From a virus, in the IMG/VR virus record IMGVR_UViG_3300020185_000011: a DNA stretch of 64,000 nt, one strand, 5' to 3'. The notes under the pieces were generated by a model. That model ran no database searches. It worked only from the letters and a program-made list of their open reading frames with translations, and was not told the origin of the DNA. The first letter of the stretch is position 1; every line of letters starts with the position of its first letter. This document shows positions 13,289 through 52,446 of the stretch, one piece after another. Both the position numbers and the translations under genes were made by a program.

Positions 13289-16200
13289 ATGGCAGAGAAG
13301 ACAGACTTAAATATATCACCTTATTATGACGACTATTCCGAAGATAAGAAATTTCATAAAGTTCTTTATAGAGCAGGCCGTCCTTTACAAGCAAGGGAAT
13401 TAACACAGTCTCAGTCAATCCTACAAAACCAAATCTCTAGACTTGGAGACCACTTCTTTGAAGAAGGGACTATCATCCAAGGCGCACAAGCAAACATCGA
13501 TATGGATGTTTACTATGTCAAAGTTAAAGCTGCAAACCCTAATCCAAGTGGTAATACTGCAGTAGAAACTTATAGAGAATCATTTCATGGAAAGTATGTC
13601 AGAGGTCAAACTAGTGGTGTTGTAGCAAAGGTAGTAACATCAACTGCAGAAACATCTGCAGATAAATTAACTCTATTTGTTAGACCAGTTCAACAAGGTA
13701 CAACAGCCACTAACGATTTCTTATTCCAAGCATCCGAAACATTGGAGTTGGTAGGATACGATTCAAGTGGTACGGTATCTGCAGATTCAGCTTCACAAAA
13801 CGATTTCGAAATTCAACCAACCTCAGAATCACCAGTAGGTAGAGCATCACTTGCAGAAATATCTGAAGGTGTAGTATTTGTAAGAGGATTCTTCACTAAG
13901 GTTGATAAACAAATTATCCTACTAGAAAAATACAATGGAGCACCATCTTATAGAGTAGGTCTAGATATCACCGAAACATTGGTGACTTCATCTGCAGACG
14001 GTACATTATTAGACAATGCAGCGGGTTCTTCAAATGAGAACGCTGGTGGTGCAGATAGATTACAATTTAACCTAGTACTAGGTAAACATAAACTAGATTC
14101 AATATTAGGTACATCCTTTGTTGAATTGACAAGAGTGAACAAAGGTGTCATAACACTTAAGATTGATAAAACAAAATATGCAGAGATAGAAAACACTCTT
14201 GCAAGAAGAACCTTTGAAGCAAATGGTGACTTCGTTGTAAATCAATTTACTGCTTCTTCAAGAGAACACTTAGACACAGGTGATAACTTAGGTTTCTATG
14301 CAGCTGCAAATGGTGGAGATGCAAATAGGTTTGTATTCATGGTATCGCCAGGTAAGGCATATGTAAGAGGATATGAAATCGATAAAGTTGGTACAACAAC
14401 TCTCTCCATAAACAAAGCAAGAACAACAGAAACATTAAATAATGTATCAGCACCTATTAGATTAGGAAACAAATTACGAGTATATAATACTCATGGTCTA
14501 CCCGAGTTCGGTAATGAAACTGGACAGGATACTATTGACCCACACAATCCAGTACTATTGTATGATGGATTAAAATCAACTTTAGGTATATCAGACACAG
14601 ATGCTTTAAACTTAAACTCCTCAACAGGAAATATTGGTACTGCAAGAGTTAGAAACGTAGACCATGTCAGTGGTGTAGACACAAGTGATGTCTATGGTAC
14701 AGATGCATTATTCAATATGTATATGTTTGATATCAAGATGTTCACCAAACTTACTGGTACGATTGCAAACACATTCGTAACAGGTGATAAAGTCACTGGT
14801 AGTGCAACTGGTACAACTGCTATTGTTCACCATGTCGAGGGAAGTAATCTTTTTGTTCATGATGTACAGGGTGCATTCTCAACTTCTGATAATATCTCAG
14901 CAGTTGGTTCGGGTTCAAATGCAACACTTACAAGTTGTTCTGCAGTTAGAGCATATAATATTGACCGTGCAAGGTCAGTTGCCCAGTTACCAAACGTTGC
15001 TGGTAGAGAAATCTTTACTGCAGATGTCTTCTTAGATGCAGACCAAGTTCTAGCTGGAACAATTACAATGGCCTCGGACTCCGCTACCGTTACAGGTTTT
15101 GCAACTCAGTTCATAAAAGAATTAAAAGAAGGTGACCAACTATTAGACCAAGCAGGTAATGTTAGAGTCATTGCTTCAGTACAATCAGAAACAAGTTTAA
15201 CTTTGACCGCGGATGGTTCTTCATCATACAGTGGTAATGCAGTTCGAAGACGTGCAAAACTGGTTGACCAAAACCAAACTGCAAACATCCATGCATGGCC
15301 AAGAGATTGGGTTAAAACACACAGCCCAGATTTTGTTACAGTAAGAAGACAGGTCACTAAATTAGTTTCCAGTGGTGGTTTCAGTATCACTACTAATGCT
15401 GGAGAAACATTCGGTGCAAGAAACACAGACAATTTTGCAATCTCAGTAAGAGAACCAGCAGGTGGTTATGCAGCTGGTGATGTACTAAACATCGAAGACT
15501 TGAGTCCAAATGTGACTACTTCGGGTTCAACAGAAACATTGGCATGCACCGTTGCATCATCAAATAACAATGCAGTTATTGATATAACTTACACAGTTAC
15601 AATTTCAGACCCGACTGCAAGAGGCAAATCTTTAGCACAAGCAAGATGTCTTAAAGTAGGAAGTCCTAGAAGTTCAAACGGTTTCTATGGAACTGCATAC
15701 GATGATAAAGATATCACATTAGGTGTTGCAGACGTACATAAGATTATTGCAGTATACGAAGGTGTTGACGGAACACCAATCACACCTAACGGTGTTATTA
15801 CCACATCAAGTGGTACGTTTGTTAATTATGAAGAACTCATAGGACAAACATCAGGCGCAAGAGCAATACTCATTAACAACGGTGGTGGTAATGCATCATA
15901 TTGGTATTACACATCTAAAGACGGTGCAACATTCGTTGGTGGTGAAACAGTAGTAGGACAGACATCTATTGCAGTTGGAGTTTTAGGTGCAACTATTAGT
16001 CAAGGTTCACCCGACATTAAAGATAGATACTTCTTTGACAATGGTCAAAGAGATGGGTTTTATGACCTATCTAAATTAACACTTAAGCCTGGGCAACCAA
16101 CACCTAACGGCCCAATCATGGTATTGTTCGATTACTTCAGAGTATCGGGTGGTGGTGACTTCTTTGATGTATCCTCATATTCAGCAATCGATTATTCTCA

Positions 16201-19200
16201 GATTCCAGTTTACTCTCCAAACAAAGTAGACTTGGGTGGTTTAGAACCCGATGGAACATTTGAACTTTCAGATTGTCTTGACTTTAGACCAGTGGTAGGT
16301 CAGATTATTGGTAGTACCACTTTTGGAACAAACAATTCACAAGACCCATCAAGTCCAGTTGACATATCAAACTCCACTAGTGGAGCAGTGTATGCACCAT
16401 TTGGTTATGAGAGTGGTCGTTCTTTCTTAGGTGCAAGAAGTGGTATCTCCGAAACAAATGCTAACGCAGTGGACGTTCCTGTTAGTGGAACATCTCTTAA
16501 AGGTGACATCTCATTCTATGTTGGAAGAATCGATAAAATCTTCTTACACAAAAAAGGTAAGTTTGAAATATCTCAAGGAACACCAGCTTTATCACCAACT
16601 AAACCAACAGGGTTAGACGATTGTATTCAGTTGTTTGAATTATCAATTCCTGCTTACACTAATAAACTATCAGATGTACGAGTAAGAAGTTTTGACCATA
16701 GACGATATACCATGAAGGATATCGGTAAGATACAAAACAGGGTTACCAACCTTGAAAGAATTACATCTCTTTCTCTATTAGAAAAAGATACACAAACAAA
16801 ACAAATTTTAGATGCAGACGGTTTTGACAGATATAAGTCAGGCTTCTTAGTAGATAACTTTAGAGGTCATAAGATTGGTGATGTAAACCATCCCGACTAT
16901 AACTGTGCTATCGATACTGCAATGGGTATGTTAAGACCCAAAGCATTTACACAATTCTTTGGTGTTACACAGAACGAAGGTGCATCATCTAACTATCAAA
17001 AGACTGGTGATATAATCACTTTACCATATGACGAAGTTAGTTATGTTAACCAAAACAAAGCGTCTCGTTCAATCAATGTTAACCCTTATCACGTGTTTGC
17101 ATTTATCGGTAATGTTAAACTATCACCCGATACAGATATTTGGCAAGACACCGAAAGACTACCCGATGTTTCAATAAACAGAGAGGGTAACTTTGATGCA
17201 GTTCTAGCTGAAAACGCAAACGCATTAGGAACAGTTTGGAACTCATGGCAAACAACATGGGTTGGTGAACCTACTACAACATCTTCAGAAGTACAAGCAA
17301 CCTCTAACGGTTCATGGAGTGGAGACCCACTACAAGGTGGACAATGGGTTGCTGGTTTACAAATTACTAGAGAGATTACAGACACACCCGAAATCCAAAC
17401 AAGGACTGGTGTAACAACTACAGTTGTTGAAGATTTAGTAGAAACAAGAAATGACAGAATAGTATCAATGTCTTTGATACCATTTATTCGTGCAAAGACT
17501 ATTGAAATTGATGCAACAAACTTAAAACCAAATTCAAACCATTACTTCTACTTTGATAACATCATAGTAAACAAATATGTAAGACCTTACAATGCAAACT
17601 ATTCACAAGATAGTGGCACTACAGTTGCTTCACATTGTAAAACAGATGGTAATGGAAGACTAAGAGCATATTTCGAATTGCCTAATACTGCAGTTCAAAG
17701 ATTCCCAACAGGGTCAAGAGAATTAAGAATTACTTCAAGTTTATATAATATGCCTAACCCTGCTTCACAGGGAACTACATTATATACTGCTCAAGGTATA
17801 TTACAAGCTTCTCAAACAGAAATTATCTCTACAAGAAATGCAAGAGTAATTAGAGAAGACCGTTCAATGCAAAGGGACTTCTCAAGAAGAGGTGAAAGGT
17901 TAAACTCAGAGATACATGATACAACTGCACCCGATTTACCGCCAAGACCAGTTAACGAGGTTCCAGTGGATAACAATCCGCCAGAACCACCCCCAGTAAC
18001 ACCAATACCTGGCCCATTGCCCGCTGAAGTGGATATAATACCACCTATCTCGATTCAAGAAATAATCGTGGAAATTCCAAACATTATACCCGAGATTGTG
18101 TTTGTACCACCAGTATTAACATTCCCAACTCCACCACACGTGCCACAAGTAATGGTCATCCAAGATAGAAGAGAGATGCCTGAGTTGCAGCTAGAAAGAC
18201 CTATGATTCAAGTCTTGAATGGTGGTAACCCAAGAGGATGGGGAGACCCACTTGCTCAATCATTCTTGGTTGACACTGTAGGTGGATTAGATTTAACCTC
18301 AATAGATTTATACTTTGCAAAGAAAGACACTTTCATGCCTTGTTCAGTACAAATCAGAAACATGGTTAATGGATATCCAGGCCAGTTAGTACTACCATTC
18401 TCAGATGTTACTAAAAATCCCGATGATATTAATGTATCTGCAGATGGTTCAGTGAAAACTACATTCACATTCGATTCTATGGTTCATTTGAACGAAGATA
18501 CTGAATACTGTTTTGTAGTTTACTCAAACTCAAATGAATACGAAGCATATATCTCAAGAATGGGAGAAACAGATTTAACAACTGCAGAAACTATTAGTGG
18601 TCAACCATATGCTGGTTCATTGTTCTTATCACAGAACGCATCTACATGGACTGCAGAACAAACAGATGACCTTAAGTTTAACTTGAAGGCTGCAAAATAT
18701 CAGATTGATAAGGTTGGTAGTGTACATTTCGAAAATGATGCTCTTCCAGCTGCAAACCTACAGGTTAATCCAATCGAAACTTTTGCAAACAATAAAGTGA
18801 AAGTATATTCTTACTTCCATGGTCTCTATGATGACACATTTAACAGAGATAATGTGACACTAGCAGGAATCACTGGAGATAAACAGAATTCTGCAGTAAA
18901 CATTACAAGTTTCTCACAGATTGGTGGTGATACACTACCAGCAGATGGAACAATCGACTGTACAGGTGATACCCATAGTGGTGGAACAGGTAGTGGAATC
19001 AAGTGTGAAGTCATCATATCAAGTGGTGCAATTACAGATGTAAACATTCTCAAATGTGGACAAGGTTATACTGCAGCTGATAACATTACAATTACAAATA
19101 TTGGTAGTTCGAATGCAGATGTAAGTGTGGTATTAGGAGCAGTCGAAGACACATTAGGTGGTTGTCCTATATCTCTTATCAATGCAACACATAGTACTAT

Positions 19201-20104
19201 TTCTGATAGAGGAATAGACTCATTTAGACTTGCACCTTCTCTTTCAGCGTATGATTTATCAAGTAACTACGTGTTCGAGACTACAGTAGGTGGTGGTGCT
19301 AATGCAACATCAACAAGAAACTACTACTTTGACTCATTACACACAATGATTCCTTCAGTACAATTGAAAGGAACAATCATTAGTGCAAACGTTCTTACAA
19401 CACCGATGTATTCACCCGAAGGAATTATTGACGGAAATGTATATCAAAGAAGAACTGCAAATAGATTTGTAACAATGAACGATAACGTATTCTTTGGTTC
19501 ACCATCAATCGTAGCTTCACCCGAAAACGAAGCTTCAGAGATGTCATCACAGAAATCATTCAACTTACAGTTACAGTTAATGTCATTCAACCCTAACATA
19601 TCACCTATGATTGATGTTCAAGCAGCGGGTTGTCTAGGTACAGGAAACAGAATTAATAATATAGACAGTGCAACTAGTACTAAGAACAATGGTACAACAA
19701 CTTCTCTACCAGCTGGTACACCATTCGTACCATCAACAGAGTCAGAGGGTGATTCAAATGCAATGGTCTATGTAACAAGAAAGGTTAACCTTAAGACTCC
19801 AGCAACATCCTTAAAAGTTATTGCAGATGTCTTTAGACCACCAACATCTGAAGTTAAATTTATGTATAAAATCATCAAGAATGATGAAGAAACTCTACTA
19901 GATGATGTAGGTTTTGAATACTTCAATACAGATGGTTCACCCGATGTTTCAACAGCAGAAGATGCAAGAAACTTTAAAGAATATGAGTTTACTGCAAATG
20001 ATTTACCCGAATTTAGTGGATTCGTAGTTAAAATAGTAGGTCAAGGAACAAGTACATCTATAGTACCAGCGGTAACTGCACTAAGATGTATGGCACTTGC
20101 ATAA
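13289..20104 (+). CDS. VrlC-like / DUF4815 large virion structural protein
   Basis: TDLNISPYYDDY, LQARELTQ.QSILQNQI, RYTMKDIG.I..R..NLE, SGFLVDNF, DPLAQSF motifs. Confidence 0.8.
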   Translation: MAEKTDLNISPYYDDYSEDKKFHKVLYRAGRPLQARELTQSQSILQNQISRLGDHFFEEGTIIQGAQANIDMDVYYVKVKAANPNPSGNTAVETYRESFHGKYVRGQTSGVVAKVVTSTAETSADKLTLFVRPVQQGTTATNDFLFQASETLELVGYDSSGTVSADSASQNDFEIQPTSESPVGRASLAEISEGVVFVRGFFTKVDKQIILLEKYNGAPSYRVGLDITETLVTSSADGTLLDNAAGSSNENAGGADRLQFNLVLGKHKLDSILGTSFVELTRVNKGVITLKIDKTKYAEIENTLARRTFEANGDFVVNQFTASSREHLDTGDNLGFYAAANGGDANRFVFMVSPGKAYVRGYEIDKVGTTTLSINKARTTETLNNVSAPIRLGNKLRVYNTHGLPEFGNETGQDTIDPHNPVLLYDGLKSTLGISDTDALNLNSSTGNIGTARVRNVDHVSGVDTSDVYGTDALFNMYMFDIKMFTKLTGTIANTFVTGDKVTGSATGTTAIVHHVEGSNLFVHDVQGAFSTSDNISAVGSGSNATLTSCSAVRAYNIDRARSVAQLPNVAGREIFTADVFLDADQVLAGTITMASDSATVTGFATQFIKELKEGDQLLDQAGNVRVIASVQSETSLTLTADGSSSYSGNAVRRRAKLVDQNQTANIHAWPRDWVKTHSPDFVTVRRQVTKLVSSGGFSITTNAGETFGARNTDNFAISVREPAGGYAAGDVLNIEDLSPNVTTSGSTETLACTVASSNNNAVIDITYTVTISDPTARGKSLAQARCLKVGSPRSSNGFYGTAYDDKDITLGVADVHKIIAVYEGVDGTPITPNGVITTSSGTFVNYEELIGQTSGARAILINNGGGNASYWYYTSKDGATFVGGETVVGQTSIAVGVLGATISQGSPDIKDRYFFDNGQRDGFYDLSKLTLKPGQPTPNGPIMVLFDYFRVSGGGDFFDVSSYSAIDYSQIPVYSPNKVDLGGLEPDGTFELSDCLDFRPVVGQIIGSTTFGTNNSQDPSSPVDISNSTSGAVYAPFGYESGRSFLGARSGISETNANAVDVPVSGTSLKGDISFYVGRIDKIFLHKKGKFEISQGTPALSPTKPTGLDDCIQLFELSIPAYTNKLSDVRVRSFDHRRYTMKDIGKIQNRVTNLERITSLSLLEKDTQTKQILDADGFDRYKSGFLVDNFRGHKIGDVNHPDYNCAIDTAMGMLRPKAFTQFFGVTQNEGASSNYQKTGDIITLPYDEVSYVNQNKASRSINVNPYHVFAFIGNVKLSPDTDIWQDTERLPDVSINREGNFDAVLAENANALGTVWNSWQTTWVGEPTTTSSEVQATSNGSWSGDPLQGGQWVAGLQITREITDTPEIQTRTGVTTTVVEDLVETRNDRIVSMSLIPFIRAKTIEIDATNLKPNSNHYFYFDNIIVNKYVRPYNANYSQDSGTTVASHCKTDGNGRLRAYFELPNTAVQRFPTGSRELRITSSLYNMPNPASQGTTLYTAQGILQASQTEIISTRNARVIREDRSMQRDFSRRGERLNSEIHDTTAPDLPPRPVNEVPVDNNPPEPPPVTPIPGPLPAEVDIIPPISIQEIIVEIPNIIPEIVFVPPVLTFPTPPHVPQVMVIQDRREMPELQLERPMIQVLNGGNPRGWGDPLAQSFLVDTVGGLDLTSIDLYFAKKDTFMPCSVQIRNMVNGYPGQLVLPFSDVTKNPDDINVSADGSVKTTFTFDSMVHLNEDTEYCFVVYSNSNEYEAYISRMGETDLTTAETISGQPYAGSLFLSQNASTWTAEQTDDLKFNLKAAKYQIDKVGSVHFENDALPAANLQVNPIETFANNKVKVYSYFHGLYDDTFNRDNVTLAGITGDKQNSAVNITSFSQIGGDTLPADGTIDCTGDTHSGGTGSGIKCEVIISSGAITDVNILKCGQGYTAADNITITNIGSSNADVSVVLGAVEDTLGGCPISLINATHSTISDRGIDSFRLAPSLSAYDLSSNYVFETTVGGGANATSTRNYYFDSLHTMIPSVQLKGTIISANVLTTPMYSPEGIIDGNVYQRRTANRFVTMNDNVFFGSPSIVASPENEASEMSSQKSFNLQLQLMSFNPNISPMIDVQAAGCLGTGNRINNIDSATSTKNNGTTTSLPAGTPFVPSTESEGDSNAMVYVTRKVNLKTPATSLKVIADVFRPPTSEVKFMYKIIKNDEETLLDDVGFEYFNTDGSPDVSTAEDARNFKEYEFTANDLPEFSGFVVKIVGQGTSTSIVPAVTALRCMALA

Positions 20105-20105
20105 G

Positions 20106-20306
20106 ATGGGTATTAAAGTCGAAGGACAATCCAATCTTTATAGAGACGAAAGTTCTCATGCTATTATAAATACAGATGTAGAACAGTATAGATTACATAT
20201 GGTTAGGAAACAACGGTTTCTAGCACAAAGGAACGAGATAGACACACTTAAGAGTGAAGTATCAGAAATGAAAAGTATGCTTCAACAATTATTGGATAGG
20301 ACGTAA
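20106..20306 (+). CDS. Small conserved T4-like hypothetical protein (coiled coil)
   Basis: KVEG..NLYRDESS.AIINTD plus C-terminal coiled coil; ATG at 20106 follows the VrlC stop. Confidence 0.7.
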   Translation: MGIKVEGQSNLYRDESSHAIINTDVEQYRLHMVRKQRFLAQRNEIDTLKSEVSEMKSMLQQLLDRT

Positions 20307-21917: not shown

Positions 21918-23636
21918 ATGTCTGAAGAAACTTTTGTAAATATAGCAACGGAGATACAGCAACCTTACATTGCTCGTGTTCCTGTAAATGCTCAACAACC
22001 AAACATTAGACAGGTTGCTGTACAGTCACCAGCACAAGCACGTCAACCATCAACATACCAATACAGGTCTCCATTCATATACAATACTCCTGTAAGCGCA
22101 CAGCAACCTAACGTTAGGGATGCACGTCAACCTTTCACTTATACAAGACAAGGTCAGACCCCAACAACTTATCAGCATAGAAGTCCATTCACATATGCAA
22201 GACAAGGTCAACAACCAGCAATATATCAACATCAACAACCATACCCATATATTGCAGTAGCACAACAACCAAATGGTAGGGATGCACAACAACCTTATCC
22301 ATATATTGCACAAGCAAGACAGCCTGGATTCTATCAGCACCCTAGTCCATTTACATATCAAAATCCTGTAAATGCACAAGAACCAAATATTAGAGATGCA
22401 CAGCAACCGTATCCATACATTGCAGCTGGACAACAACCTACTATTAAGAATCAACAAGAACCTAATATACGTAATAGTCAAACACCATTCACATATAGAA
22501 ACCCAGTGAATGCACAAGAACCTAATATTAGAGATGCAAGACAGCCTGCTACATATCAGCATCAGTCTCCACTTACTTACAACTTTAGGTCTCCATTCAC
22601 GTATCAACATAGGTCACCATTCACATATAGAAATCCTGTAAGCGCACAAGAACCTAATATTAGAAACGCAAGACAGCCTGCTGAATATCAGCATCAGTCT
22701 CCATTCACTTATCAGAATCCTAGTAATGGTCAAGAGCCTAATATACGTAATAGTCAGACACCATTCACATATCAGAATCCAGTGAATGGACAACAACCTA
22801 ATATTAGAAGTGCCCAGCAACCGTATCCATACATTGCAAATTCACAAACACCATTTACGTATCAATATAGAAGTCCATTCACATATGCAAGGCAAGGACG
22901 AACACCATTTACTTATGCTGTGCAAACACCAGCAAATACATCTTCACAACAACCTTTGATTGCTCAGAGACCTTACATATTTGATGGTATCGATGGGGAT
23001 GATTCGAATCCAGCACCAACTACAACTTGGGGCCCAGGCGCTCAAGCTCAATATACTGTGGGTTCTCCTGCTTTTCCAATCTCTACAAATAGAGCATGGG
23101 ATAAGGCTGTTAGTTCTTTCGGTACTACGGCTAATAGTGCTACAGCATTTTTTAGATTCACTTATGGTGGAACAACATCAGCTGATGTTGATGTAGAATG
23201 GGCGGGAACTTTCCAACCAGCCACCAAGTTCTTCCCTGTATACGAAGATACTATAAACCATCATTCCCCAAGTGGAATTGACAGTACGTGGTCATGGGAA
23301 GCAAAATGGAATTCTACTGGAGACTCCAACTTGAACGAGCTGGGTATCAGTTTTGCTCCTCATCAATGGAGCACTTCTACAGGTAGTTACAAAGCAAAAG
23401 ATACATATTATAATATATGGAATGGGTCTTCTACGTCAAATTTGGTAGAATTCAAATGGAGAGCATCTGTGGGTAATCAGGGCGAATCAGAAGCATCGGT
23501 ACAGAGTACAGGTGTCGTATTTACCGTAAAAGTATCCAAGACAGGACAAACATCATTATACACTAGTTATAGTGCTGGGACAGTTAGACCAAGCGCATTC
23601 AACACTGGTGGCGGTGGTGGTGGAGGCTTCCAGTAA
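21918..23636 (+). CDS. Repeat protein A: Pro-punctuated 6/8/10-aa units plus ~220-aa C-terminal globular domain
   Basis: 44 units over aa 16-351; non-repetitive W/S/T-rich C-terminus ending GGGGGGFQ. Confidence 0.85.
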   Translation: MSEETFVNIATEIQQPYIARVPVNAQQPNIRQVAVQSPAQARQPSTYQYRSPFIYNTPVSAQQPNVRDARQPFTYTRQGQTPTTYQHRSPFTYARQGQQPAIYQHQQPYPYIAVAQQPNGRDAQQPYPYIAQARQPGFYQHPSPFTYQNPVNAQEPNIRDAQQPYPYIAAGQQPTIKNQQEPNIRNSQTPFTYRNPVNAQEPNIRDARQPATYQHQSPLTYNFRSPFTYQHRSPFTYRNPVSAQEPNIRNARQPAEYQHQSPFTYQNPSNGQEPNIRNSQTPFTYQNPVNGQQPNIRSAQQPYPYIANSQTPFTYQYRSPFTYARQGRTPFTYAVQTPANTSSQQPLIAQRPYIFDGIDGDDSNPAPTTTWGPGAQAQYTVGSPAFPISTNRAWDKAVSSFGTTANSATAFFRFTYGGTTSADVDVEWAGTFQPATKFFPVYEDTINHHSPSGIDSTWSWEAKWNSTGDSNLNELGISFAPHQWSTSTGSYKAKDTYYNIWNGSSTSNLVEFKWRASVGNQGESEASVQSTGVVFTVKVSKTGQTSLYTSYSAGTVRPSAFNTGGGGGGGFQ

Positions 23637-24661
23637 TGGCAACAGGACAACAACCATACGCATATCGTAACCCTATAATTGTAGGATATAGGATGCCTTC
23701 TATTGAGAACGCACAACAACCGTATCCATACATTGCAAATGCACAACAACCAAACATAAGGGATGCAAGACAGCCAGGAACATATGCAAGACAAGGGCAA
23801 ACGCCTTTTACTTATCAGCACCAGTCTCCATTCACTTACAGGAATCCTAGTAATGCACGTCAACCTGCTACATATCAGCATCAGTCTCCATTCACTTACA
23901 GAAACCCTGTAAATGGTCAAGAACCTAATATACGTAATAGTCAGACACCATTTACTTACAACTTTAGGTCTCCATTCACATATAGAAGTCCAGTGAATGC
24001 TCAAGAACCTAATATTAGAAACATACAACAACCTAATATTAGAAATCAGCAAGAGCCTAATATACGTAACAGTCAGACACCATTTACTTACAACTTTAGG
24101 TCTCCATCCACTTACAGGAATCCTAGTAATGCAAGGCAACCAGCGACTTATCAACATAGGTCACCACTTACATATAACCATAGGTCACCGTTTACCTATG
24201 CAAGACAGGCAATAAGACAAGTATCATATCAGCATCAATCACCGTATACGTATCGTAATCCTTCTAATGCACAAACAAATGTTGTTAAGGAAAGTCAGAC
24301 TCCATTCACATATGCTAGACAAGGTCAAACACCGTTTACGTATCAATATAGAAGTCCATTCACATATCAGAGAACAGGACGAACACCAGTGAATGCCAAT
24401 ACGGATATACAATATCCTTATATTGCAAGTGGTCAAGAGCCTAACATTAGAAACAGACAATTACCGTATCCATATATTGCAGCGGGTCAGACACCGTTTA
24501 CATATCAGCATAGGTCACCTTTCACTTATCAGAATCCAGTGCAAGGTCAAGAGCCTAATATTAGAAATTCACAAACACCGTTCTTCTATAATGCTGGTAG
24601 TCAAGTATCATATCAACACAGAAGTCCGTTCACATATCAAGTCACTTACAATACTACTAGG
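21963..24661 (+). repeat. Coding repeat arrays of A (21963-22970) and B (23654-24661)
   Basis: 18/24/30-nt units encoding PFTY.., PNIR.., PYPYIA.. and PVxAQE. Confidence 0.9.
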
Positions 24662-24805
24662 GTCATACCTAGATATGCAAGGGTCAAAGGTGTGTTCATA
24701 AATGACAATGGAACTTTAAGGAAATTAGACGAAGTTCACGTAAATGACAACGGAACGGCAAGAAAAATACACCAATCTGTACCAACTGCTCAGTATCAAA
24801 CTTAA
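23636..24805 (+). CDS. Repeat protein B (mirror partner of A)
   Basis: TAATG coupling to A; ~44 units over aa 7-342; C-terminal VKGVFINDNG..K..VHVNDNG..K segment. Confidence 0.85.
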   Translation: MATGQQPYAYRNPIIVGYRMPSIENAQQPYPYIANAQQPNIRDARQPGTYARQGQTPFTYQHQSPFTYRNPSNARQPATYQHQSPFTYRNPVNGQEPNIRNSQTPFTYNFRSPFTYRSPVNAQEPNIRNIQQPNIRNQQEPNIRNSQTPFTYNFRSPSTYRNPSNARQPATYQHRSPLTYNHRSPFTYARQAIRQVSYQHQSPYTYRNPSNAQTNVVKESQTPFTYARQGQTPFTYQYRSPFTYQRTGRTPVNANTDIQYPYIASGQEPNIRNRQLPYPYIAAGQTPFTYQHRSPFTYQNPVQGQEPNIRNSQTPFFYNAGSQVSYQHRSPFTYQVTYNTTRVIPRYARVKGVFINDNGTLRKLDEVHVNDNGTARKIHQSVPTAQYQT

Positions 24806-28505: not shown

Positions 28506-28520
28506 GCTATAAATAGTACT

Positions 28521-32028: not shown

Positions 32029-33459
32029 ATGGCAACAGGTTCACAAAAGGTCAAAACACCAGCAGGTTGGAATTCAACCCAAGGTGCATGGGTAAAGACA
32101 GGTTCTTCCACATGGAAAGCAGTCGACCAAATCTATATTAAAACCCCTACTGGATGGAACAATGCATCAGGGCAGACTGCAACTCAAATTCCATATCCGT
32201 ACATTGCAAATGGACAACAGCCAAACATAAGGGATGCTCAACAACCATATCCATACATTGCAAATGCACAACAACCAAACATAAGAGATGCACAGCAACC
32301 GTATCCATATATTGCTAATGCACAAGAACCAAACATAAGGGATGCACAGCAACCATATCCTTATATAGCGAATGCAAGACAACCTTCTACGTACCAACAT
32401 AGGAGTCCGTTTACATATGCAAGACAGGGACAAACACCGTTCACTTATCAACATAGGTCTCCATTTACATATAGAAACCCAGTAAATGGTCAAGAACCTA
32501 ATATACGTAATAGTCAAACACCTTTCACTTATAGAAATCCAGTGAATGGACAAGAGCCTAATATTAGAGATGCACGTCAACCTTCTACGTATCAGCATAG
32601 AAGTCCATTTACGTACAATCATAGGTCACCATTTACGTACAGTCATAGGTCTCCATTCACATATAGAAGTCCAGTGAATGCTCAAGAACCGAACATTAGA
32701 GATGCAAGACAACCTGCTACGTATCAACATAGGTCACCGTTAACATATAGTCATAGGTCTCCGTTTACATATCAGCACAGGTCTCCATTTACATATAGAA
32801 GTCCTGTAAGCGCACAGGAACCTAATATTAGAAATGCACGTCAACCTGCTACGTATCAGCACAGGTCACCTTTAACATATAGTCACAGGTCACCATTCAC
32901 GTATCAACATAGGTCACCATTTACATATAGAAGTCCTGTATCTGCTCAAGAACCTAATATACGTAATGCAAGACAACCTTCTACGTATCAACATAGAAGT
33001 CCGTTAACATATAGTCATAGGTCACCATATACATACAGTCATAGGTCTCCGTTCACTTACAGAAACCCTGTATCTGCTCAACAACCTAATATACGTTCGG
33101 CACAACAACCTAATATACGTTCGGCACAACAACCGTTTACGTTCCAAAATCCGTTTACTTATCGACAACCAAGTAATGCTAGACAACCGAATAATGCAAG
33201 GAACCCATTTACGTATAGAGTACCGTATATTGCAAATGCTAGACAACCGAATAGTGCAAGGAACCCATTCACTTATAGAGTACCTTACATTGCTAATGCA
33301 AGACAACCGAATAGTGCAAGAAGCCCATTCACTTATAGAGTACCTTACATTGCTAATGCAAGGCAACCTGTTATTTCTCAGTCACCGTTTACATATAGTC
33401 ATAGGTCACCATTCAACTACTACTTTACTGGGGGTGGTGGCAACTTCTGTGAGCCATAA
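32029..33459 (+). CDS. Repeat protein C
   Basis: N-terminal VKT..GW..WVKTG..WK..IYIKT..GW segment; 55 Pro-started units over aa 55-460; ends GGGGNFCEP. Confidence 0.85.
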   Translation: MATGSQKVKTPAGWNSTQGAWVKTGSSTWKAVDQIYIKTPTGWNNASGQTATQIPYPYIANGQQPNIRDAQQPYPYIANAQQPNIRDAQQPYPYIANAQEPNIRDAQQPYPYIANARQPSTYQHRSPFTYARQGQTPFTYQHRSPFTYRNPVNGQEPNIRNSQTPFTYRNPVNGQEPNIRDARQPSTYQHRSPFTYNHRSPFTYSHRSPFTYRSPVNAQEPNIRDARQPATYQHRSPLTYSHRSPFTYQHRSPFTYRSPVSAQEPNIRNARQPATYQHRSPLTYSHRSPFTYQHRSPFTYRSPVSAQEPNIRNARQPSTYQHRSPLTYSHRSPYTYSHRSPFTYRNPVSAQQPNIRSAQQPNIRSAQQPFTFQNPFTYRQPSNARQPNNARNPFTYRVPYIANARQPNSARNPFTYRVPYIANARQPNSARSPFTYRVPYIANARQPVISQSPFTYSHRSPFNYYFTGGGGNFCEP

Positions 33460-34752
33460 GCCGATGAAAAACATGACAAGAAATAATATTAAACTAACAG
33501 GAGTTTTAAAGTGCCTATAGGTAATAGACAACAACCTACTATTAAGAACGCACAGCAACCTGTCGCGTCTCAGAATCCGTTCACATATGCAAACAGATAT
33601 CCAGCGAGTGCTCAACAACCTTTTACGTTCCAAGCACCATTTACATATAGTGCAAGATATCCAGCGAGTGCTCAACAACCTTTTACGTTCCAAGCACCAT
33701 TTACATATAGTGCAAGATATCCAGCGAATGGACAGCAACCGTTTACGTTTCAGAATCCGTTTACTTACAGACACCCTATGTCTGCGAGACAACCTAACAA
33801 CGCAAGGAATCCATTTACATACAGTTATAGGTCTCCATTTACGTACAACTATAGGTCACCATTTACATATAGAAGTCCTGTAAATGGTCAAGAACCTAAT
33901 ATACGTTCTGCACAAGAGCCTAATATTAGAAGTCAACAAGAACCTAATATACGTTCTGCACAGACTCCGTTCACTTATCAATATAGAAGTCCGTTCACTT
34001 ATAGAAACCCTGTATCTGCTCAAGAACCTAATATTAGAAACATACAGCAACCTAACATTAGAAGTCAGCAAGAACCTAATATACGTAATAGTCAAACACC
34101 GTTCACTTATCAGCACAGGTCTCCTTTCACTTATAGGAACCCTGTATCTGCACAAGAACCGAACATTAGAGCTGCACAACAACCTAATATTAGAAGTCAA
34201 CAAGAACCTAATATTAGAAACAGTCAAACACCGTTTACGTACAATCACAGGTCTCCATCTACATATAGGAACCCTGTATCTGCTCAAGAACCTAATATAC
34301 GTTCTGCTCAAGAACCTAATATACGTTCTGCACAAGAGCCTAACATTAGGGATGCTCAGACTCCGTTCACTTATCAATATAGAAGTCCGTTCACTTATCA
34401 GAATCCTAGTAATGCACGTCAACCTGCTACATATCAGTACAGGTCACCGTTCACTTATCAGAATCCAGTAAGCGCACAGGAACCTAATATTAGAAATGCA
34501 CAGCAACCGTATCCATACATTGCAGCTGCTCAAGAACCTAATATACGTAATGCACAGACTCCGTTTACTTATCAGAGAACAGGTCAAACACCGTTCACTT
34601 ATCAGCACAGGTCTCCATTCACGTATGCAAGACAGGGTCAAACACCGTTTACGTATCAACATAGAAGTCCGTTCACATATCAAAGAACAGGTCAAACACC
34701 GTTTACGTATCAACACAGAAGTCCATTCACATATGCAAGACAGGGTCAAACC
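32191..34752 (+). repeat. Coding repeat arrays of C (32191-33408) and D (33535-34752)
   Basis: Same unit alphabet; each array is 1218 nt; includes an exact 60-nt tandem at 33601-33720. Confidence 0.9.
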
Positions 34753-34815
34753 CCCGAAGCAAGATGGGATGGAGTGGTATCACAACAGTGGCCTGCAACC
34801 CCAATTACATCATAG
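33511..34815 (+). CDS. Repeat protein D (mirror partner of C)
   Basis: AGGAG RBS with GTG start; 55 units over aa 9-414. Confidence 0.85.
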   Translation: MPIGNRQQPTIKNAQQPVASQNPFTYANRYPASAQQPFTFQAPFTYSARYPASAQQPFTFQAPFTYSARYPANGQQPFTFQNPFTYRHPMSARQPNNARNPFTYSYRSPFTYNYRSPFTYRSPVNGQEPNIRSAQEPNIRSQQEPNIRSAQTPFTYQYRSPFTYRNPVSAQEPNIRNIQQPNIRSQQEPNIRNSQTPFTYQHRSPFTYRNPVSAQEPNIRAAQQPNIRSQQEPNIRNSQTPFTYNHRSPSTYRNPVSAQEPNIRSAQEPNIRSAQEPNIRDAQTPFTYQYRSPFTYQNPSNARQPATYQYRSPFTYQNPVSAQEPNIRNAQQPYPYIAAAQEPNIRNAQTPFTYQRTGQTPFTYQHRSPFTYARQGQTPFTYQHRSPFTYQRTGQTPFTYQHRSPFTYARQGQTPEARWDGVVSQQWPATPITS

Positions 34816-34835
34816 GAACTTACCCGACAGTGAAC

Positions 34836-34862
34836 AAACCCCTCGAAAGAGGGGTTTTTTTT
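34836..34862 (+). terminator. Rho-independent terminator after repeat protein D
   Basis: AAACCCCTC-GAAA-GAGGGGTTT followed by a T tract. Confidence 0.85.
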
Positions 34863-34879
34863 ATCCTCTAAATACCAGT

Positions 34880-36460
34880 ATGAAAAATATAAGCACCCTT
34901 GAAGAAGCAAAAGAGTTAATTATCCCACAAGATTGGGACAAACTAAGAGACCAAGATAGAAGACACATTGGTAATTTCCATCTAGGTTCATTTAATATAG
35001 AACCAGGCTTTAGTAAAACTAGTGAAACATATAAAATTCTAGACTGGTTATTCAAAGAGATTCTTCCACCTGTAAAAATTGCAAAGTGGTCAGACTTTGA
35101 ATACCTAAGAAAGGAAAATAGATTTGGTGGGTTCAATGGTTTGAGAAATGAATCAGTAACCTATCACAAGTTCCTACCAAGAGGTTATGCAGAGAAACCT
35201 AGAAAGGTTATCCCAGGCGTAGCAGGTATGGATATGAAAGATGCTGATGGATATGTCGATATAGACACATTAATCGATTGGGATACCGTTGAAAATAGAG
35301 ACCAAAGTGCAGAAGGGTCATTACTATCGATGTATTATCATGGTGCAAAAGCACATTGGTTAATTCAAAGTATTCAAGAGGAAGGTCTTAGAGCTCCTAT
35401 TCAAGGATATGTTATCAGTCATGGTATTACTGGTAATAATGTAGAACCAACTTATACATTTAGAATACATCCAGGCTCTATTAGGAGTGGTGTGTTTGAA
35501 GAATTGAATGATAATGATATGGAAATTATGGTAATAGATAATTTTGATGTCGTGAAAGTTGAACCATCAAGCCTAGACGATGTGTTAGAAATGTGGTATA
35601 ATAAGTTAACGAGATTAGGTAAAGCATATCATTGTTCATTTACGTATGTTGATGGATGTATTGAATACAATACTGCATTGATGGACTTAGATTTCAGAGA
35701 AGAAGTACATGCATTCAACAAACAAGTCTTTGAACTTGCAAAGGGTAAACCCCTAACAATTTATATTGGACATGATAGTAGGCATGGAGATTTGTCTAAG
35801 TGTTCTAAGTTTGCAATCCTAGAAAGTATTAAAAGTGGATTCGGTAAAGGCTGGATGCACGACCAAGTTAAATGGGAACCCGAAGTCAAGATACTTGACA
35901 TTGCTGAGATTCCCGAGTATACTAGAGAGTATGCTAATCAAAGTACTGAATTTACATACAGTAGATTTCTAATACCTTACCTAGAGAACTATGAAGGGTT
36001 TAGTATCTTCATTGATGATGATTTCATCTTCAACAAAAGCATACTACCTATGTTCTACTATCTAAACCCAAACGATGCTGTTGCATGTATTAAATACCCA
36101 CAATACGAACATGATGCAACCAAGTTTGACGGTGAAGTTAATATCGATTATCCAAAGAAGCTGTGGTCTAGTATGATGGTGTTCAACAACGGACATGAAG
36201 ACTGTAAGAAGTTAACACCCGAAGTTGTCAACACATGGACAGGAAAACAGTTACATCAATTCGAATGGACTGATAAGATTTCACCTATACCCGAACACTA
36301 TATCTTTGTGGAAGGGTATGATAATCACGAAGAAAAGTATAATTATAGTGGTATTCACTATACTCGTGGTGGCCCATGGGTAAAAGGCATGGATTATTCT
36401 ACCATAAATAATCTTGAAGACTTTTTAAAAGTGAAAAGAAAGTTGCCAATTGGCGATTAG
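34880..36460 (+). CDS. Glycosyltransferase (C-terminal GT-A, CDI-like) fused to an uncharacterised N-terminal domain
   Basis: IYIGHDSR, QSTEFTYSRFLIPYL..YEG.SIFIDDDF (DxD), WSSMMVFN, IHYTRGGPW. Start reassigned to ATG 34880, after the terminator and late promoter. Confidence 0.8.
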   Translation: MKNISTLEEAKELIIPQDWDKLRDQDRRHIGNFHLGSFNIEPGFSKTSETYKILDWLFKEILPPVKIAKWSDFEYLRKENRFGGFNGLRNESVTYHKFLPRGYAEKPRKVIPGVAGMDMKDADGYVDIDTLIDWDTVENRDQSAEGSLLSMYYHGAKAHWLIQSIQEEGLRAPIQGYVISHGITGNNVEPTYTFRIHPGSIRSGVFEELNDNDMEIMVIDNFDVVKVEPSSLDDVLEMWYNKLTRLGKAYHCSFTYVDGCIEYNTALMDLDFREEVHAFNKQVFELAKGKPLTIYIGHDSRHGDLSKCSKFAILESIKSGFGKGWMHDQVKWEPEVKILDIAEIPEYTREYANQSTEFTYSRFLIPYLENYEGFSIFIDDDFIFNKSILPMFYYLNPNDAVACIKYPQYEHDATKFDGEVNIDYPKKLWSSMMVFNNGHEDCKKLTPEVVNTWTGKQLHQFEWTDKISPIPEHYIFVEGYDNHEEKYNYSGIHYTRGGPWVKGMDYSTINNLEDFLKVKRKLPIGD

Positions 36461-37052: not shown

Positions 37053-37757
37053 ATGTTCGAAAATGTTGAGTTAGAGTTCATCAAGGAACCCTTTCATATC
37101 AAAGATATGCCTTTGAAAAATATGTATATCCTTGATGACTATCTATCTCCAACATTACATCATGCAATAGACGAACAGATAGTTCGAAAGTCTTACTGGG
37201 CAAAGACCAACCAAGTGAATTCAAACTCACCTACAGGATTACCGCACCATAGTTTTTGGGGTGCTGGGTTTTTCAGAGGAGAGAATCAAGAAATAGAACA
37301 CGGTATGGAACCTAAAGACACATACTTAATGGGATGGTTCAATAGAAAGCTACAAACTGATTTTGGTTTTATGTGGGAAAGGTTTCAATACTTTGGATTG
37401 AACTCACAAACTCAAGGATTGGAAGGAACCACACATTCAGATTGTGATATGGAAGATGATTGGAATCTATCATTCTTATATTATCCAAATAGATTTTGGA
37501 ATGATTCATGGGGTGGGTCTTTACGATTGTATGATGAACCACAACAAGGAATCCATGGAAGAGCAGACCACATTAAAAATCATCAAACACAAGAAATATA
37601 TTTTAAACCAAATAGATTGTTGATATTTGACGGAAGAATACCACATGGTGCAGATGCACCATCTCCAAAGGCACGATATATGGATAGACGTTCTTTGGTA
37701 ATAAGAGGAGACGAAATTAGTATAAGAACTTTATGGGGTGAAGATGCCTACGATTGA
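37053..37757 (+). CDS. 2OG-Fe(II) oxygenase (prolyl-hydroxylase-like)
   Basis: HSD ... LYYPN..W...WGG.L ... KPNRLLIFDGRIPH...P.....R.SL. Confidence 0.85.
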   Translation: MFENVELEFIKEPFHIKDMPLKNMYILDDYLSPTLHHAIDEQIVRKSYWAKTNQVNSNSPTGLPHHSFWGAGFFRGENQEIEHGMEPKDTYLMGWFNRKLQTDFGFMWERFQYFGLNSQTQGLEGTTHSDCDMEDDWNLSFLYYPNRFWNDSWGGSLRLYDEPQQGIHGRADHIKNHQTQEIYFKPNRLLIFDGRIPHGADAPSPKARYMDRRSLVIRGDEISIRTLWGEDAYD

Positions 37758-38670
37758 ATTCACAACTTACGATAAGAGAACCACAGAGTTATGGAGACCT
37801 GTTTTAGCTAAAAAGGTTGTTCCCGATTGGTGGAAGACCATGAAAGTTCAAGAGATGGTTCGTGGGAATAAGACTCAAACTATTAGGTCATGTCCAGCAA
37901 TGGACGACTGGTTAAAGAGTGGTTGGTACATATGTGCAAAAACAGATATGCAAGTAAAGGTAAATGAAGACGGTAGGTCAATGACAGACCCAAACAATCC
38001 CCTTCATTCTCCAACTCATCCAGCTGCACAAGGTGGTCATAACTTTACCTACCTACCCAAAGAGGATGCACCCACTAAAGATGCATTTAAAATGAGAGCT
38101 CCTTGGAATATTATTACACCACCAGGCTATTCATGTCTATATCTAGACCCCTTTCTATTTCAGAATACTCATTTTGCAACATGGCAGGGAATCATCGATA
38201 CAGATACATTCAATGTGAATATGGATAATTCTCAGATTATATTCTATCCTAAAACGAATAAGGACTTTGTAATCAAAGAGGGTACACCACTAGTACAGGT
38301 CGTTCCTTACAGAAGAGAAGTGTGGAATGCATCCTATATAACTTATGATAATAAATCATGGCAAGAGAATCGTTCTGTAAGAACTACACATAGAGTAGGA
38401 GAGGACGGTGAGAAACTCAAGACCATGGACGAATGGAATAGGTCACCCGAACTCAGAGAAGAGAAGAGACACATAGAAGGAATGGCTGGTGCATACAGAA
38501 GAATTAAATATTGGAATGAAAAGGGAAGGATGTTCAAAGAAGATAATCCACCACCCGAATGTCCTATGCACAACCCCGATGTAAATGACGAGGTAGAGAT
38601 GGAAAGGGATTATAAAAAAGAACAATTGAAACAAACTGATTTGAATTGGGATGGTCAAGATGACAGTTAG
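37744..38670 (+). CDS. Conserved hypothetical (DUF6065-like), often next to 2OG oxygenases
   Basis: TIRSCPAM.D.L..G, PW.I.TPPGYSCL, GIIDTD, GTPLVQVVPY.R. Confidence 0.55.
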   Translation: MPTIEFTTYDKRTTELWRPVLAKKVVPDWWKTMKVQEMVRGNKTQTIRSCPAMDDWLKSGWYICAKTDMQVKVNEDGRSMTDPNNPLHSPTHPAAQGGHNFTYLPKEDAPTKDAFKMRAPWNIITPPGYSCLYLDPFLFQNTHFATWQGIIDTDTFNVNMDNSQIIFYPKTNKDFVIKEGTPLVQVVPYRREVWNASYITYDNKSWQENRSVRTTHRVGEDGEKLKTMDEWNRSPELREEKRHIEGMAGAYRRIKYWNEKGRMFKEDNPPPECPMHNPDVNDEVEMERDYKKEQLKQTDLNWDGQDDS

Positions 38671-39370
38671 ATTAGCATTCCCTACTGCTATATTTGAAAG
38701 AGATTTACTTGACAAAGAAAAGTATGGTAACGATGCTGTTACAATTGAATACATCGATTCTCTTAGAAATGAAATGGATGCATGGAGACAAAGAGACCCG
38801 AAGGGAAGGCAGATTTCAAATAGATATACTGGTTGGCAGTCGGAAGATGGTATAGAACAACATCCAAGTTTTGCAAAGATTATAAGATGTATTGAAGCTG
38901 CATTGAGAGAAGAGGTGCAGACATTCTTTGGAGTAAATCCAAATGCAGCCCAAATTAAAATAGACAACACATGGGCAAACATAAATGATAAAGGTGCGTG
39001 GAACACACCACACTTACATAATGGTTGTTGGTATAGTGGAGTATGTTATATACATGGTGACGGTGACGAGGGAGACCTCAATATGATTAATACCGATGCT
39101 AAAGTAGTTGCAGACCACCCATCTTTGCAACGACACCAAGAGAGTATTCAGTACCAACCTAAAACTGGAAGACTCATATTGTTTCCTAGTGGTGCAATGC
39201 ATATGGTAGAACCCAATCCCACAGACAAAGATAGATACTCAATCTCTTTCAATTGTAGAGTACAATACATTGGTAATCCCTCAGATGCAAGAAAACCGTG
39301 GAGAAACCCACCGCCTGAAGATGAATTTACTTTTGAATTAGATTCAAATGGCGACCCCATAATCAACTAG
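38660..39370 (+). CDS. 2OG-Fe(II) oxygenase, TIGR02466-like
   Basis: FPTAI, WANIN..G.WN.PHLH, SGVCY, G.LILFPS...H.VEPN....RYSISFN. Confidence 0.85.
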   Translation: MTVRLAFPTAIFERDLLDKEKYGNDAVTIEYIDSLRNEMDAWRQRDPKGRQISNRYTGWQSEDGIEQHPSFAKIIRCIEAALREEVQTFFGVNPNAAQIKIDNTWANINDKGAWNTPHLHNGCWYSGVCYIHGDGDEGDLNMINTDAKVVADHPSLQRHQESIQYQPKTGRLILFPSGAMHMVEPNPTDKDRYSISFNCRVQYIGNPSDARKPWRNPPPEDEFTFELDSNGDPIIN

Positions 39371-51141: not shown

Positions 51142-52446
51142 ATGTTTTTATCAGAAAACTTACAAGAAAAGTGGGAGCCGATTCTAGAACACTCCGATTT
51201 ACCAAAAATCGAAGACAACTACAAGCGTGCTGTTACTGCTGTTATTCTTGAAAACCAAGAGAAGGCCCTTTTCGAAGAGCAAGGAAACTTGGAAGAAGCA
51301 GCACCTTTAAATGCTACTGGAAGCGCGGTTGCAAACTGGAATCCTATTTTGATTTCATTAGTAAGACGTGCTATGCCAAATCTCGTTGCATACGACATTT
51401 GTGGTGTTCAACCAATGACAGGCCCAACTGGACTTATCTTTGCTATGAAAGCAAGATATAACGATGATACTGACGCCGATAGAGCTGCAAAATCAGAAGC
51501 ACTTCATAACGAAGCAAGAACTGATTACTCTGCATCTCCTCAAGGAACAGGTACTTCACTAGGTTCAGACCCAATAGGTGACCCTTTCGACACATCATCT
51601 CCTTCATACGCATCCACTACAAGTGGTGGTATGAGTACTGCTTCTGCTGAAGCATTAGGTGATGGAGCAGGAAATCACTTTGCAGAGATGGCATTCTCAA
51701 TCGAGAAAGCTACTGTCACTGCTAAATCCAGAGCATTAAAAGCTGAGTACACACTCGAACTTGCACAAGACCTCAAAGCAATCCACGGTCTTGACGCAGA
51801 ATCAGAACTTGCAAATATTCTTTCATCAGAAATTCTTGCAGAAATCAACCGTGAAGTTATCAGAAATGTTAACTTACAAGCAAAAACTGGTGCAGCTTCA
51901 ACAGCTTCAGCAGGTACTTTCAACCTAGACGTTGATGCTAACGGTAGATGGTCTGTTGAGAAATTCAAAGGATTATTGTTCCAAATCGAAAGAGAATCAA
52001 ACTTCATCGCTAAAGATACACGTAGAGGAAAAGGTAACTTTATCCTATGTTCATCTGATGTAGCTTCTGCTCTTTCAATGGCAGGTGTATTAGATTACAC
52101 TCCTGCTCTTAACACAAACTTAAACGTTGACGATACTGGTAATACTTTTGCTGGTCTTCTAAACGGAAGAGTTAAAGTATATGTTGACCCATATGCTGGT
52201 GTTGACTACTTAACAGTAGGTTATAGAGGAACTAACCCTTATGATGCTGGTCTTTTCTATTGCCCATACGTTCCATTACAAATGGTTCGTGCAGTAGGTG
52301 AGAACACATTCCAACCAAAAATCGGTTTCAAAACTAGATATGGTATGGTTTCAAATCCATTCGTAGGTGCTACACCTGCTGACGGACTTGCATCCGCTGG
52401 AACTAACCAGTACTACAGAAAGATGGCAGTGTCTAACATTCTGTAA
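51142..52446 (+). CDS. gp23: Major capsid protein gp23
   Basis: LISLVRRAMPNL.AYDICGVQPMTGPTGLIFAM, SRALKAEY..ELAQDLKAIHGLDAE, FQPKIGFKTRYG. Confidence 0.97.
   Translation: MFLSENLQEKWEPILEHSDLPKIEDNYKRAVTAVILENQEKALFEEQGNLEEAAPLNATGSAVANWNPILISLVRRAMPNLVAYDICGVQPMTGPTGLIFAMKARYNDDTDADRAAKSEALHNEARTDYSASPQGTGTSLGSDPIGDPFDTSSPSYASTTSGGMSTASAEALGDGAGNHFAEMAFSIEKATVTAKSRALKAEYTLELAQDLKAIHGLDAESELANILSSEILAEINREVIRNVNLQAKTGAASTASAGTFNLDVDANGRWSVEKFKGLLFQIERESNFIAKDTRRGKGNFILCSSDVASALSMAGVLDYTPALNTNLNVDDTGNTFAGLLNGRVKVYVDPYAGVDYLTVGYRGTNPYDAGLFYCPYVPLQMVRAVGENTFQPKIGFKTRYGMVSNPFVGATPADGLASAGTNQYYRKMAVSNIL

Follow-up and report, generated by a model that had tools for sequence, protein, structure and literature searches.

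How two neighbouring genes can hold long arrays of short repeats in step with one another, when the arrays differ in length from one genome to the next, is the question raised by genes C (32029-33459) and D (33511-34815). Both lie on the + strand of IMG/VR virus record IMGVR_UViG_3300020185_000011, and the whole stretch of 64,000 nucleotides that was analysed is called the window here. Both encoded proteins are strings of units of 6, 8 or 10 residues, the order of unit lengths in C is the order in D read backwards, and across related genomes the two orders vary together. It is likely that C and D encode the two distinct chains of a single long virion fibre, that genes A and B provide the chains of a second, and that the length of such fibres evolves by matched slippage of the paired repeats.

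The mirrored arrays

Gene C encodes 476 residues and consists of a 54-residue N-terminal domain (32029-32190), an array of 55 Pro-initiated units (residues 55-460, nucleotides 32191-33408), a Gly run and a short tail. Gene D encodes 434 residues from a GTG start (its homologue in the nearest relative, G001, has an ATG at the equivalent place), and its 55-unit array covers residues 9-414 (33535-34752). Units were defined by cutting the proteins before each unit-initial Pro, which gives pieces of 6, 8 or 10 residues, and the higher-order arrays were located with Tandem Repeats Finder, from which the copy numbers below are taken. C holds a 54-nucleotide array (10+8 residues) at the N-terminal end of its array (32191-32384, 3.6 copies), then a 132-nucleotide or 44-residue array (32524-33093, 4.3 copies; four blocks with the unit pattern 8,8,8,8,6,6) and, at its C-terminal end, a 60-nucleotide or 20-residue array (33174-33368, 3.2 copies). 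In D the three periods of 54, 132 and 60 nucleotides come in the reverse order of 60, 132 and 54, all again on the + strand: 33595-33749 at the N-terminal end (2.6 copies) is the register partner of 33174-33368, 33833-34322 (3.7 copies, four blocks) is that of the C blocks, and 34582-34751 at the C-terminal end (8+10 residues, 3.1 copies) is that of 32191-32384. A sequence-only reading of this DNA had described four 44-residue blocks in C mirrored by four in D, and both counts are confirmed, with exactly four blocks of this pattern in C (residues 177-352) and exactly four in D (residues 129-304), which are partners in the register.

When the units of C are compared with those of D taken in reverse, their lengths are equal at 55 consecutive positions with neither a mismatch nor a gap, a score of 55 against 10.8 +/- 2.4 (maximum 22) in 300 shuffles of unit order. 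At the residue level, where an antiparallel register means that the C residue index and the D residue index add up to a constant, one gapless register accounts for 56 of the 56 shared unit boundaries over 407 residues; the next best, a shift by one block, accounts for 31. In this single register the tandem arrays of C cover 97-100% of their counterparts in D, and C 33241-33360 lies opposite D 33583-33702, within the exact repeat of D. Facing units are opposite in type, aromatic against polar, at 54 of 55 positions.

The second pair shows the same arrangement. Gene A (21918-23636, + strand, 572 residues) is its first chain and carries an array at residues 16-351 (21963-22970) followed by a 220-residue non-repeat C-terminal domain; gene B (23636-24805, + strand, 389 residues) carries an array at residues 7-342 (23654-24661) followed by a 47-residue C-terminal domain. 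A and reversed B share one register over 336 residues, in which Pro is missing from a few boundaries, and facing units are of opposite type at 41 of 44 positions. Within the window the non-partner combinations (A-D, C-B, A-C and B-D) mirror each other over 89-101 residues or 13-15 units, compared with 407 residues for C/D and 309-336 for A/B, which agrees with the earlier observation that the orders of A/B and C/D differ overall yet share local stretches. The further proposal that aperiodicity enforces register and partner specificity is in keeping with the in-silico figures (56 against 31 boundaries, and at most 15 units between non-partners), while physical pairing, and with it the fibre, is what we infer from this.

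The two genes are separated by a spacer of 51 nucleotides (33460-33510, + strand) with three in-frame TAA codons and an AGGAG (33499-33503) 7 nucleotides 5' of the GTG of D, and D would thus be translated on its own. C and D share a reading frame in the window, where the three TAA codons split them, and are in different frames in G001, so the shared frame is a coincidence and not a sign of read-through.

Co-variation across related loci

The nearest relative, virus record G001, holds 27% of the sampled words of the window. Its C has 526 residues and its D has 480, and each contains five 44-residue blocks as against four here. Judged from DNA identity, the additional ones in G001 are block 2 of C and block 4 of D, which lie opposite each other in the register, an assignment that rests on differences of a few percent and is suggestive. 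The 60-nucleotide tandems tell something different. As had been claimed, D 33601-33660 and 33661-33720 are identical (0 mismatches in 60), and C 33241-33300 and 33301-33360, copies 2 and 3 of their array, are nearly so (2 in 60; the preceding C copy differs at 7 in 60). The suggestion that these tandems mark a change in length did not survive the comparison with G001, as there are three 20-residue copies per gene in both genomes and no gain in copy number. What differs is one unit at the partner positions c3/d1 (third copy of C, first copy of D), of 8 residues in G001 and of 6 in the window. Equal copy number together with this change from 8 to 6 residues points to homogenisation and not to added copies, and the near-exact 60-nucleotide repeats read as the trace of recent homogenisation at facing positions in both genes.

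A wider survey used the non-repeat N-terminal domain of C as query and found 80 IMG/VR loci, across which this domain is 83-100% identical, and in nearly all of them a C-like gene adjoins a D-like gene. Once duplicates were removed, 52 distinct C/D pairs were left, among which 38 different unit orders occur and the mirrored span varies more than threefold, from 155 to 517 residues. In 45 of the 52 the two arrays align antiparallel without a gap, starting at the first unit behind the N-terminal domain, and array lengths measured independently in each protein are correlated with r=0.984. For an evolutionary comparison a tree was built from a conserved gene that comes after D in all loci, and raw contrasts were split by distance into those between lineages more than 0.02 apart in this flanking gene and those between near-identical contigs. 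In the diverged class (n=31) the change in C and the change in D are correlated with r=0.98, 26 of the 31 contrasts go in the same direction and the remaining ones are a few residues in size. Standardised independent contrasts had given r=-0.25, because unmatched variants sit on zero-length branches; they were discarded as meaningless and replaced by the raw ones. The claim that a length change in one gene is compensated in the other is borne out by the gapless alignments and by both correlations, and the frequent unmatched array lengths in relatives that would have spoken against it were not observed among these 52 pairs. The mirror code and its co-variation across genomes are thus plain observations, and the differences that have become fixed between lineages are matched ones.

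The mirror extends beyond the arrangement seen in the window. Gene order is D then C in one clade (loci L041-L049, L074 and L080), where the mirror is intact, and the rule is thus independent of which gene comes first. Locus L034 (2383-4041) uses another dialect of units, with 8-residue units of the PYIA kind opposite 8-residue units of the PFTY type and runs of PNNA-type 6-mers opposite runs of PFTF-type 6-mers; the alphabet of units is therefore larger than the window shows, while the mirror rule does not change. On further contigs, A/B-like pairs are mirrored over 127-321 residues. Four genomes contain both pairs and are related closely enough for a simple test; in these both cognate pairs score far above the crosses, and in more distant genomes the cognate C/D mirror still far exceeds the crosses.

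Proposed pairing geometry and rival explanations

Unit lengths from Pro to Pro are even in all 4,283 of 4,283 cases in the 52 pairs, which means an unbroken period of two residues over hundreds of residues, as in an extended beta strand. Among the 14,215 facing positions one residue offset stands out: there the summed side-chain volume varies least (variance 1637, compared with 2070-3397), mutual information peaks at 1.69 bits, and the facing residues are F/Y-A, Y-R, N-T and Pro-Q/R. These patterns lead us to infer a pair of antiparallel strands that are complementary in steric terms and through Tyr facing Arg. With 0.33 nm assumed for each residue, shaft length would come to about 134 nm for C/D and about 111 nm for A/B. 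As to the number of chains per fibre, one possibility is a six-stranded (CD)3 needle built in the manner of the gp37 tip. Several points indicate that the attached end is made of the C N-terminus and the D C-terminus and that the tip is the end where C and D adjoin, namely the conserved N-terminal domain of C, the variable C-terminus of C and the 220-residue C-terminal domain of A.

At this presumed tip the C-terminus of C carries in relatives nothing, a Hint domain or other domains. In many C homologues (P0001, P0003, P0009, P0036) a Hint or intein-like domain stands right behind the Gly run, with Cys as its first residue and His-Asn at its end, followed by a short tail; the Hint region of P0003 scores 30.3 bits against Vint, with a cut-off of 27. 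C of the window (end at 33409-33459) has no Hint domain after the Gly run and stops 5 residues past it, with Glu-Pro as its last residues, and other homologues likewise break off shortly behind the run and finish with Glu-Pro. Some Hint-less C tails resemble the tail found after the Hint domain in other homologues. Together the sequences suggest that a self-cleaving domain has been gained or lost at the putative fibre tip. Gene A likewise ends in a Gly run.

The mechanism that would account for the matching is as follows. The chains of C and D would run antiparallel next to each other as extended strands of beta type, each unit of 6, 8 or 10 residues facing a unit of equal length and opposite kind in the partner chain, with aromatic units (PFTY and PYPYIA kind) opposite polar ones (PNIR, PVSA and PNNA kind); residue by residue, bulky F/Y would meet A/G/S, Y would meet R and Pro would meet Q/R. 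Since unit lengths come in an aperiodic order, only one register of the right partner would fit over the whole length. Tandem DNA repeats of 54, 60 and 132 nucleotides would slip or recombine easily, so that each gene would often gain or lose units on its own, and the length variants probably stem from such slippage or from unequal exchange within the arrays. Variants in one gene only would not last and lineages would keep those with a matching change in the partner, selection being the presumed cause of the matching, and the length of the fibre would hence evolve in paired steps. The adjacency of C and D would keep matched sets inherited together.

Several results weigh against this account. 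Seven of the 52 pairs require gaps, and every copy number used here, that of the window too, comes from short-read assemblies. With more distant A/B-like pairs a simple test of Pro boundaries picks up short mirrors only. A search for a fused single-chain C-D form of at least 761 residues found none, which is weak evidence. AlphaFold2 was uninformative in two trials, with a predicted local distance difference test score (pLDDT) of 39 for an in-frame read-through hairpin (end of C, spacer and start of D, with TAA read as Gly) given no alignment, and of 44 for the whole short pair of L034 (one TAA between the frames) given an alignment of 65 rows, in which the N-terminal domain alone forms a small sheet. 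Finally, five near-identical contig pairs differ in one gene only; in these and in the gapped pairs a mismatch may be tolerated or the assemblies may be wrong.

These one-gene changes, seen between near-identical contigs only, are all of whole repeat units. L024 has one extra 132-nucleotide block in D and a C that is 100% identical to that of L023, L015 has one D block fewer, L017 has two C blocks fewer, and L037 and L030 each have one 54-nucleotide C unit fewer. The extra D block of L024 is a 99% copy of the neighbouring block, and short reads could for this reason not count the copies; the matched L016-type state was recovered from several separate contigs. Public per-run (Logan) contigs from four studies give pieces of 150-340 nucleotides inside the arrays, identical to the window, from which copy number and C-D linkage are unreadable, and as the joints of these pieces are confounded by repeats and by related phages they have no bearing either way on unpaired variants. 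The proposed search for unpaired intermediates thus did turn up whole-unit variants in one gene, which are explained equally well as assembly ambiguity and as short-lived unpaired variants. Whichever their origin, the fixed differences are matched.

Of the other ways to account for the mirror, the one that fares best keeps the pairing of the chains and changes its geometry, such that each unit would be a rung or strand of a two-chain beta-solenoid or of a cross-beta, amyloid-like stack, and the shaft would be about 26 nm long instead of about 134 nm, some five times shorter. The units are short, rich in Q, N and Y and bounded by Pro, as turns could be, equal unit lengths would also keep rungs matched, and AlphaFold2 predicts no extended ribbon. 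Even lengths throughout are nevertheless what an unbroken strand needs and a rung-and-turn design does not, and there is a single best offset with big residues against small ones along the whole unit, Pro included, which leaves the stacked arrangement unlikely. Distinctly less probable still is that C and D do not touch and form separate homo-oligomers, each measured against a common third partner or length requirement. Phage fibres are normally homotrimers, and a correlation of lengths taken alone would suit a shared ruler; a shared length leaves unexplained the reversed identical order of 55 unit lengths, the opposite types at 54 of 55 positions, the pairing of big and small residues at one offset and the matched change of a single 6/8-residue unit at partner positions.

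That the matching is an artefact of assembly or a by-product at the DNA level (inverted duplication or gene conversion) with no meaning for the proteins is scarcely credible. Short-read assemblers do handle repeat arrays badly, the Logan contigs break inside them and one unmatched case is a near-exact 132-nucleotide tandem copy, but errors of assembly would ruin a 55-unit match and would hardly produce it in 45 independent contigs that come from different samples, the DNAs show no reverse complementarity, and gene conversion cannot copy one array into the other in reverse order given that the partner arrays differ in sequence. The block arrays of C and D are 73-78% identical in the same direction. 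Against the minus strand of D, C has matches of 10 nucleotides only (E 2.3), which arise because the codons of the PNIR motif are near-palindromic, and the antisense translation of C bears no resemblance to D. The sequence-only reading was right that the two DNAs are not complementary, and D as the DNA reverse complement of C was rejected.

Known systems, neighbourhood and meaning

The nearest known structure is the needle domain of gp37 at the tip of the T4 long tail fibre, which PMC9659904, drawing on Bartual et al. 2010, describes as a six-stranded antiparallel beta needle of three intertwined chains. Shared features are a thin phage fibre shaft with extended strands in both directions, a T4-type phage and the host-recognition gene region, and in gp37 too the up and down strands need matching length. 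In contrast to gp37, whose chain folds back on itself, the two directions here are two genes, and a single gene that runs to the tip and back is not what is found, C and D each having its own start and ribosome-binding site and lying in different frames in G001. Unlike gp37 also, the present strands have 336-406 residues each, a small alphabet of Pro-initiated units and a readable complement rule, and they have no sequence similarity to gp37 or to any solved structure. HxH motifs run along the gp37 needle, as reportedly described by Bartual et al. 2010, and serve there to bind iron; the four arrays contain none.

Other comparisons are more remote. Alpha/beta spectrin is an antiparallel heterodimer whose repeats are helical domains of 106 residues, and it resembles C/D in that two different repeat chains lie side by side in opposite directions, but it has no unit-by-unit length code and no rule of opposite types, and its repeats are not known to be gained or lost in matched fashion to such an extent. 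Collagen heterotrimers of specific register and keratin-type heterodimeric coiled coils are likewise fibrous, with a sequence pattern that sets partner choice and axial register; their chains are parallel with a fixed period of 3 or 7, whereas here the chains would be antiparallel and three even unit lengths come in aperiodic order. Collagen-like runs of G-x-y triplets are absent from the arrays. D matches Cementoin (PF10511, transglutaminase substrate repeats) at 29.5 bits, above the cut-off of 27, with no single stretch that passes; C scores 21.6 bits, under that cut-off, and the arrays are almost without Lys. The match is probably compositional.

Searches of 50,697 cultured phage records by megablast and tblastn, with the repeat part (possibly masked) and the non-repeat N-terminal domain, found no relative. 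A search of the PDB by sequence gave no chain at E<=1, and searches of Pfam and PHROGs with A-D found no relative. No description of these proteins or of such a fibre design was found in the literature searched; a survey of pelagimyophages (PMC7029224) is silent on them, and what is called a "two-protein chain-like fibre" in phage A1002 (PMC13730344) is a different matter.

The setting of the genes is that of a T4-type phage. T4-type structural genes are present in the window, among them that of the major capsid protein (51142-52446), which has 64-68% identity to its counterparts in Methylophilales phage Melnitz and in Pelagibacter phages HTVC008M and Mosig. The four repeat genes, all on the + strand, stand amid fibre-like genes, with a large VrlC-like gene (13289-20104) on one side and the genes for neck and head on the other, in a region called the host recognition cluster in pelagimyophages (PMC7029224), and neighbouring genes match tail-fibre and structural PHROGs. 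Directly 3' of the C/D pair in 51 of 51 related loci is a glycosyltransferase-8-like gene (34832-36460, + strand; 43-89% identity). In the window it is followed, up to 39370, by a 185-residue open reading frame, a 2-oxoglutarate (2OG)-Fe(II) oxygenase (37053-37757), a 310-residue open reading frame and a second 2OG oxygenase (38651-39370), and the synteny from a fibre gene through C, D and the glycosyltransferase-8-like gene to the second 2OG oxygenase is kept in 51 of 51 related loci at 40-95% identity. The oxygenases and the glycosyltransferase might modify the Pro/Tyr/Thr-rich fibre proteins by hydroxylation and glycosylation.

A T4-type late-promoter motif, TATAAATA, whose function is presumed, stands on the + strand at 28508-28515, upstream of a run of fibre-like genes whose last members are C and D, and a second copy at 20165-20172 stands ahead of the run that contains A and B. 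The window has 12 such sites against 5.4 expected, 11 of them on the + strand, and the sites (including those at 20165, 24811 and 28508) are mostly immediately upstream of structural genes. Long open frames on the opposite strand of the arrays (32167-32622 and 33856-34422, both -) result from the near-palindromic PNIR codons and from the lack of stop-prone codons, and were not treated as genes. Of the sampled words of the region 32029-34815, 0.89-0.95 occur in each of 20 public runs of marine metagenomes, which belong to 11 studies, and this type of phage is therefore widespread in the sea.

Overall the balance tips slightly towards seeing in C and D a protein-protein analogue of base pairing, in which the order of units, of three even lengths and two kinds, sets partner, register and length, and in which the duplex evolves through compensatory changes in the manner of nucleic-acid helices, here by matched slippage in the adjacent genes. 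This would be a new principle for building and sizing a fibrous protein, with two genes carrying complementary strings of repeats and length set through paired repeat changes. It would also be a clean case of co-evolution between proteins, in which 38 unit orders, almost all matched, can be read by eye without statistical coupling methods. If true, the pairing code would be readable from sequence and would predict which fibre chains pair in any such phage, and in protein design it could be copied for two-chain antiparallel rods of chosen length. As the genes lie in the host-recognition region of abundant uncultured marine T4-like phages, fibre length may be a tunable trait in the contact between phage and host in the ocean.

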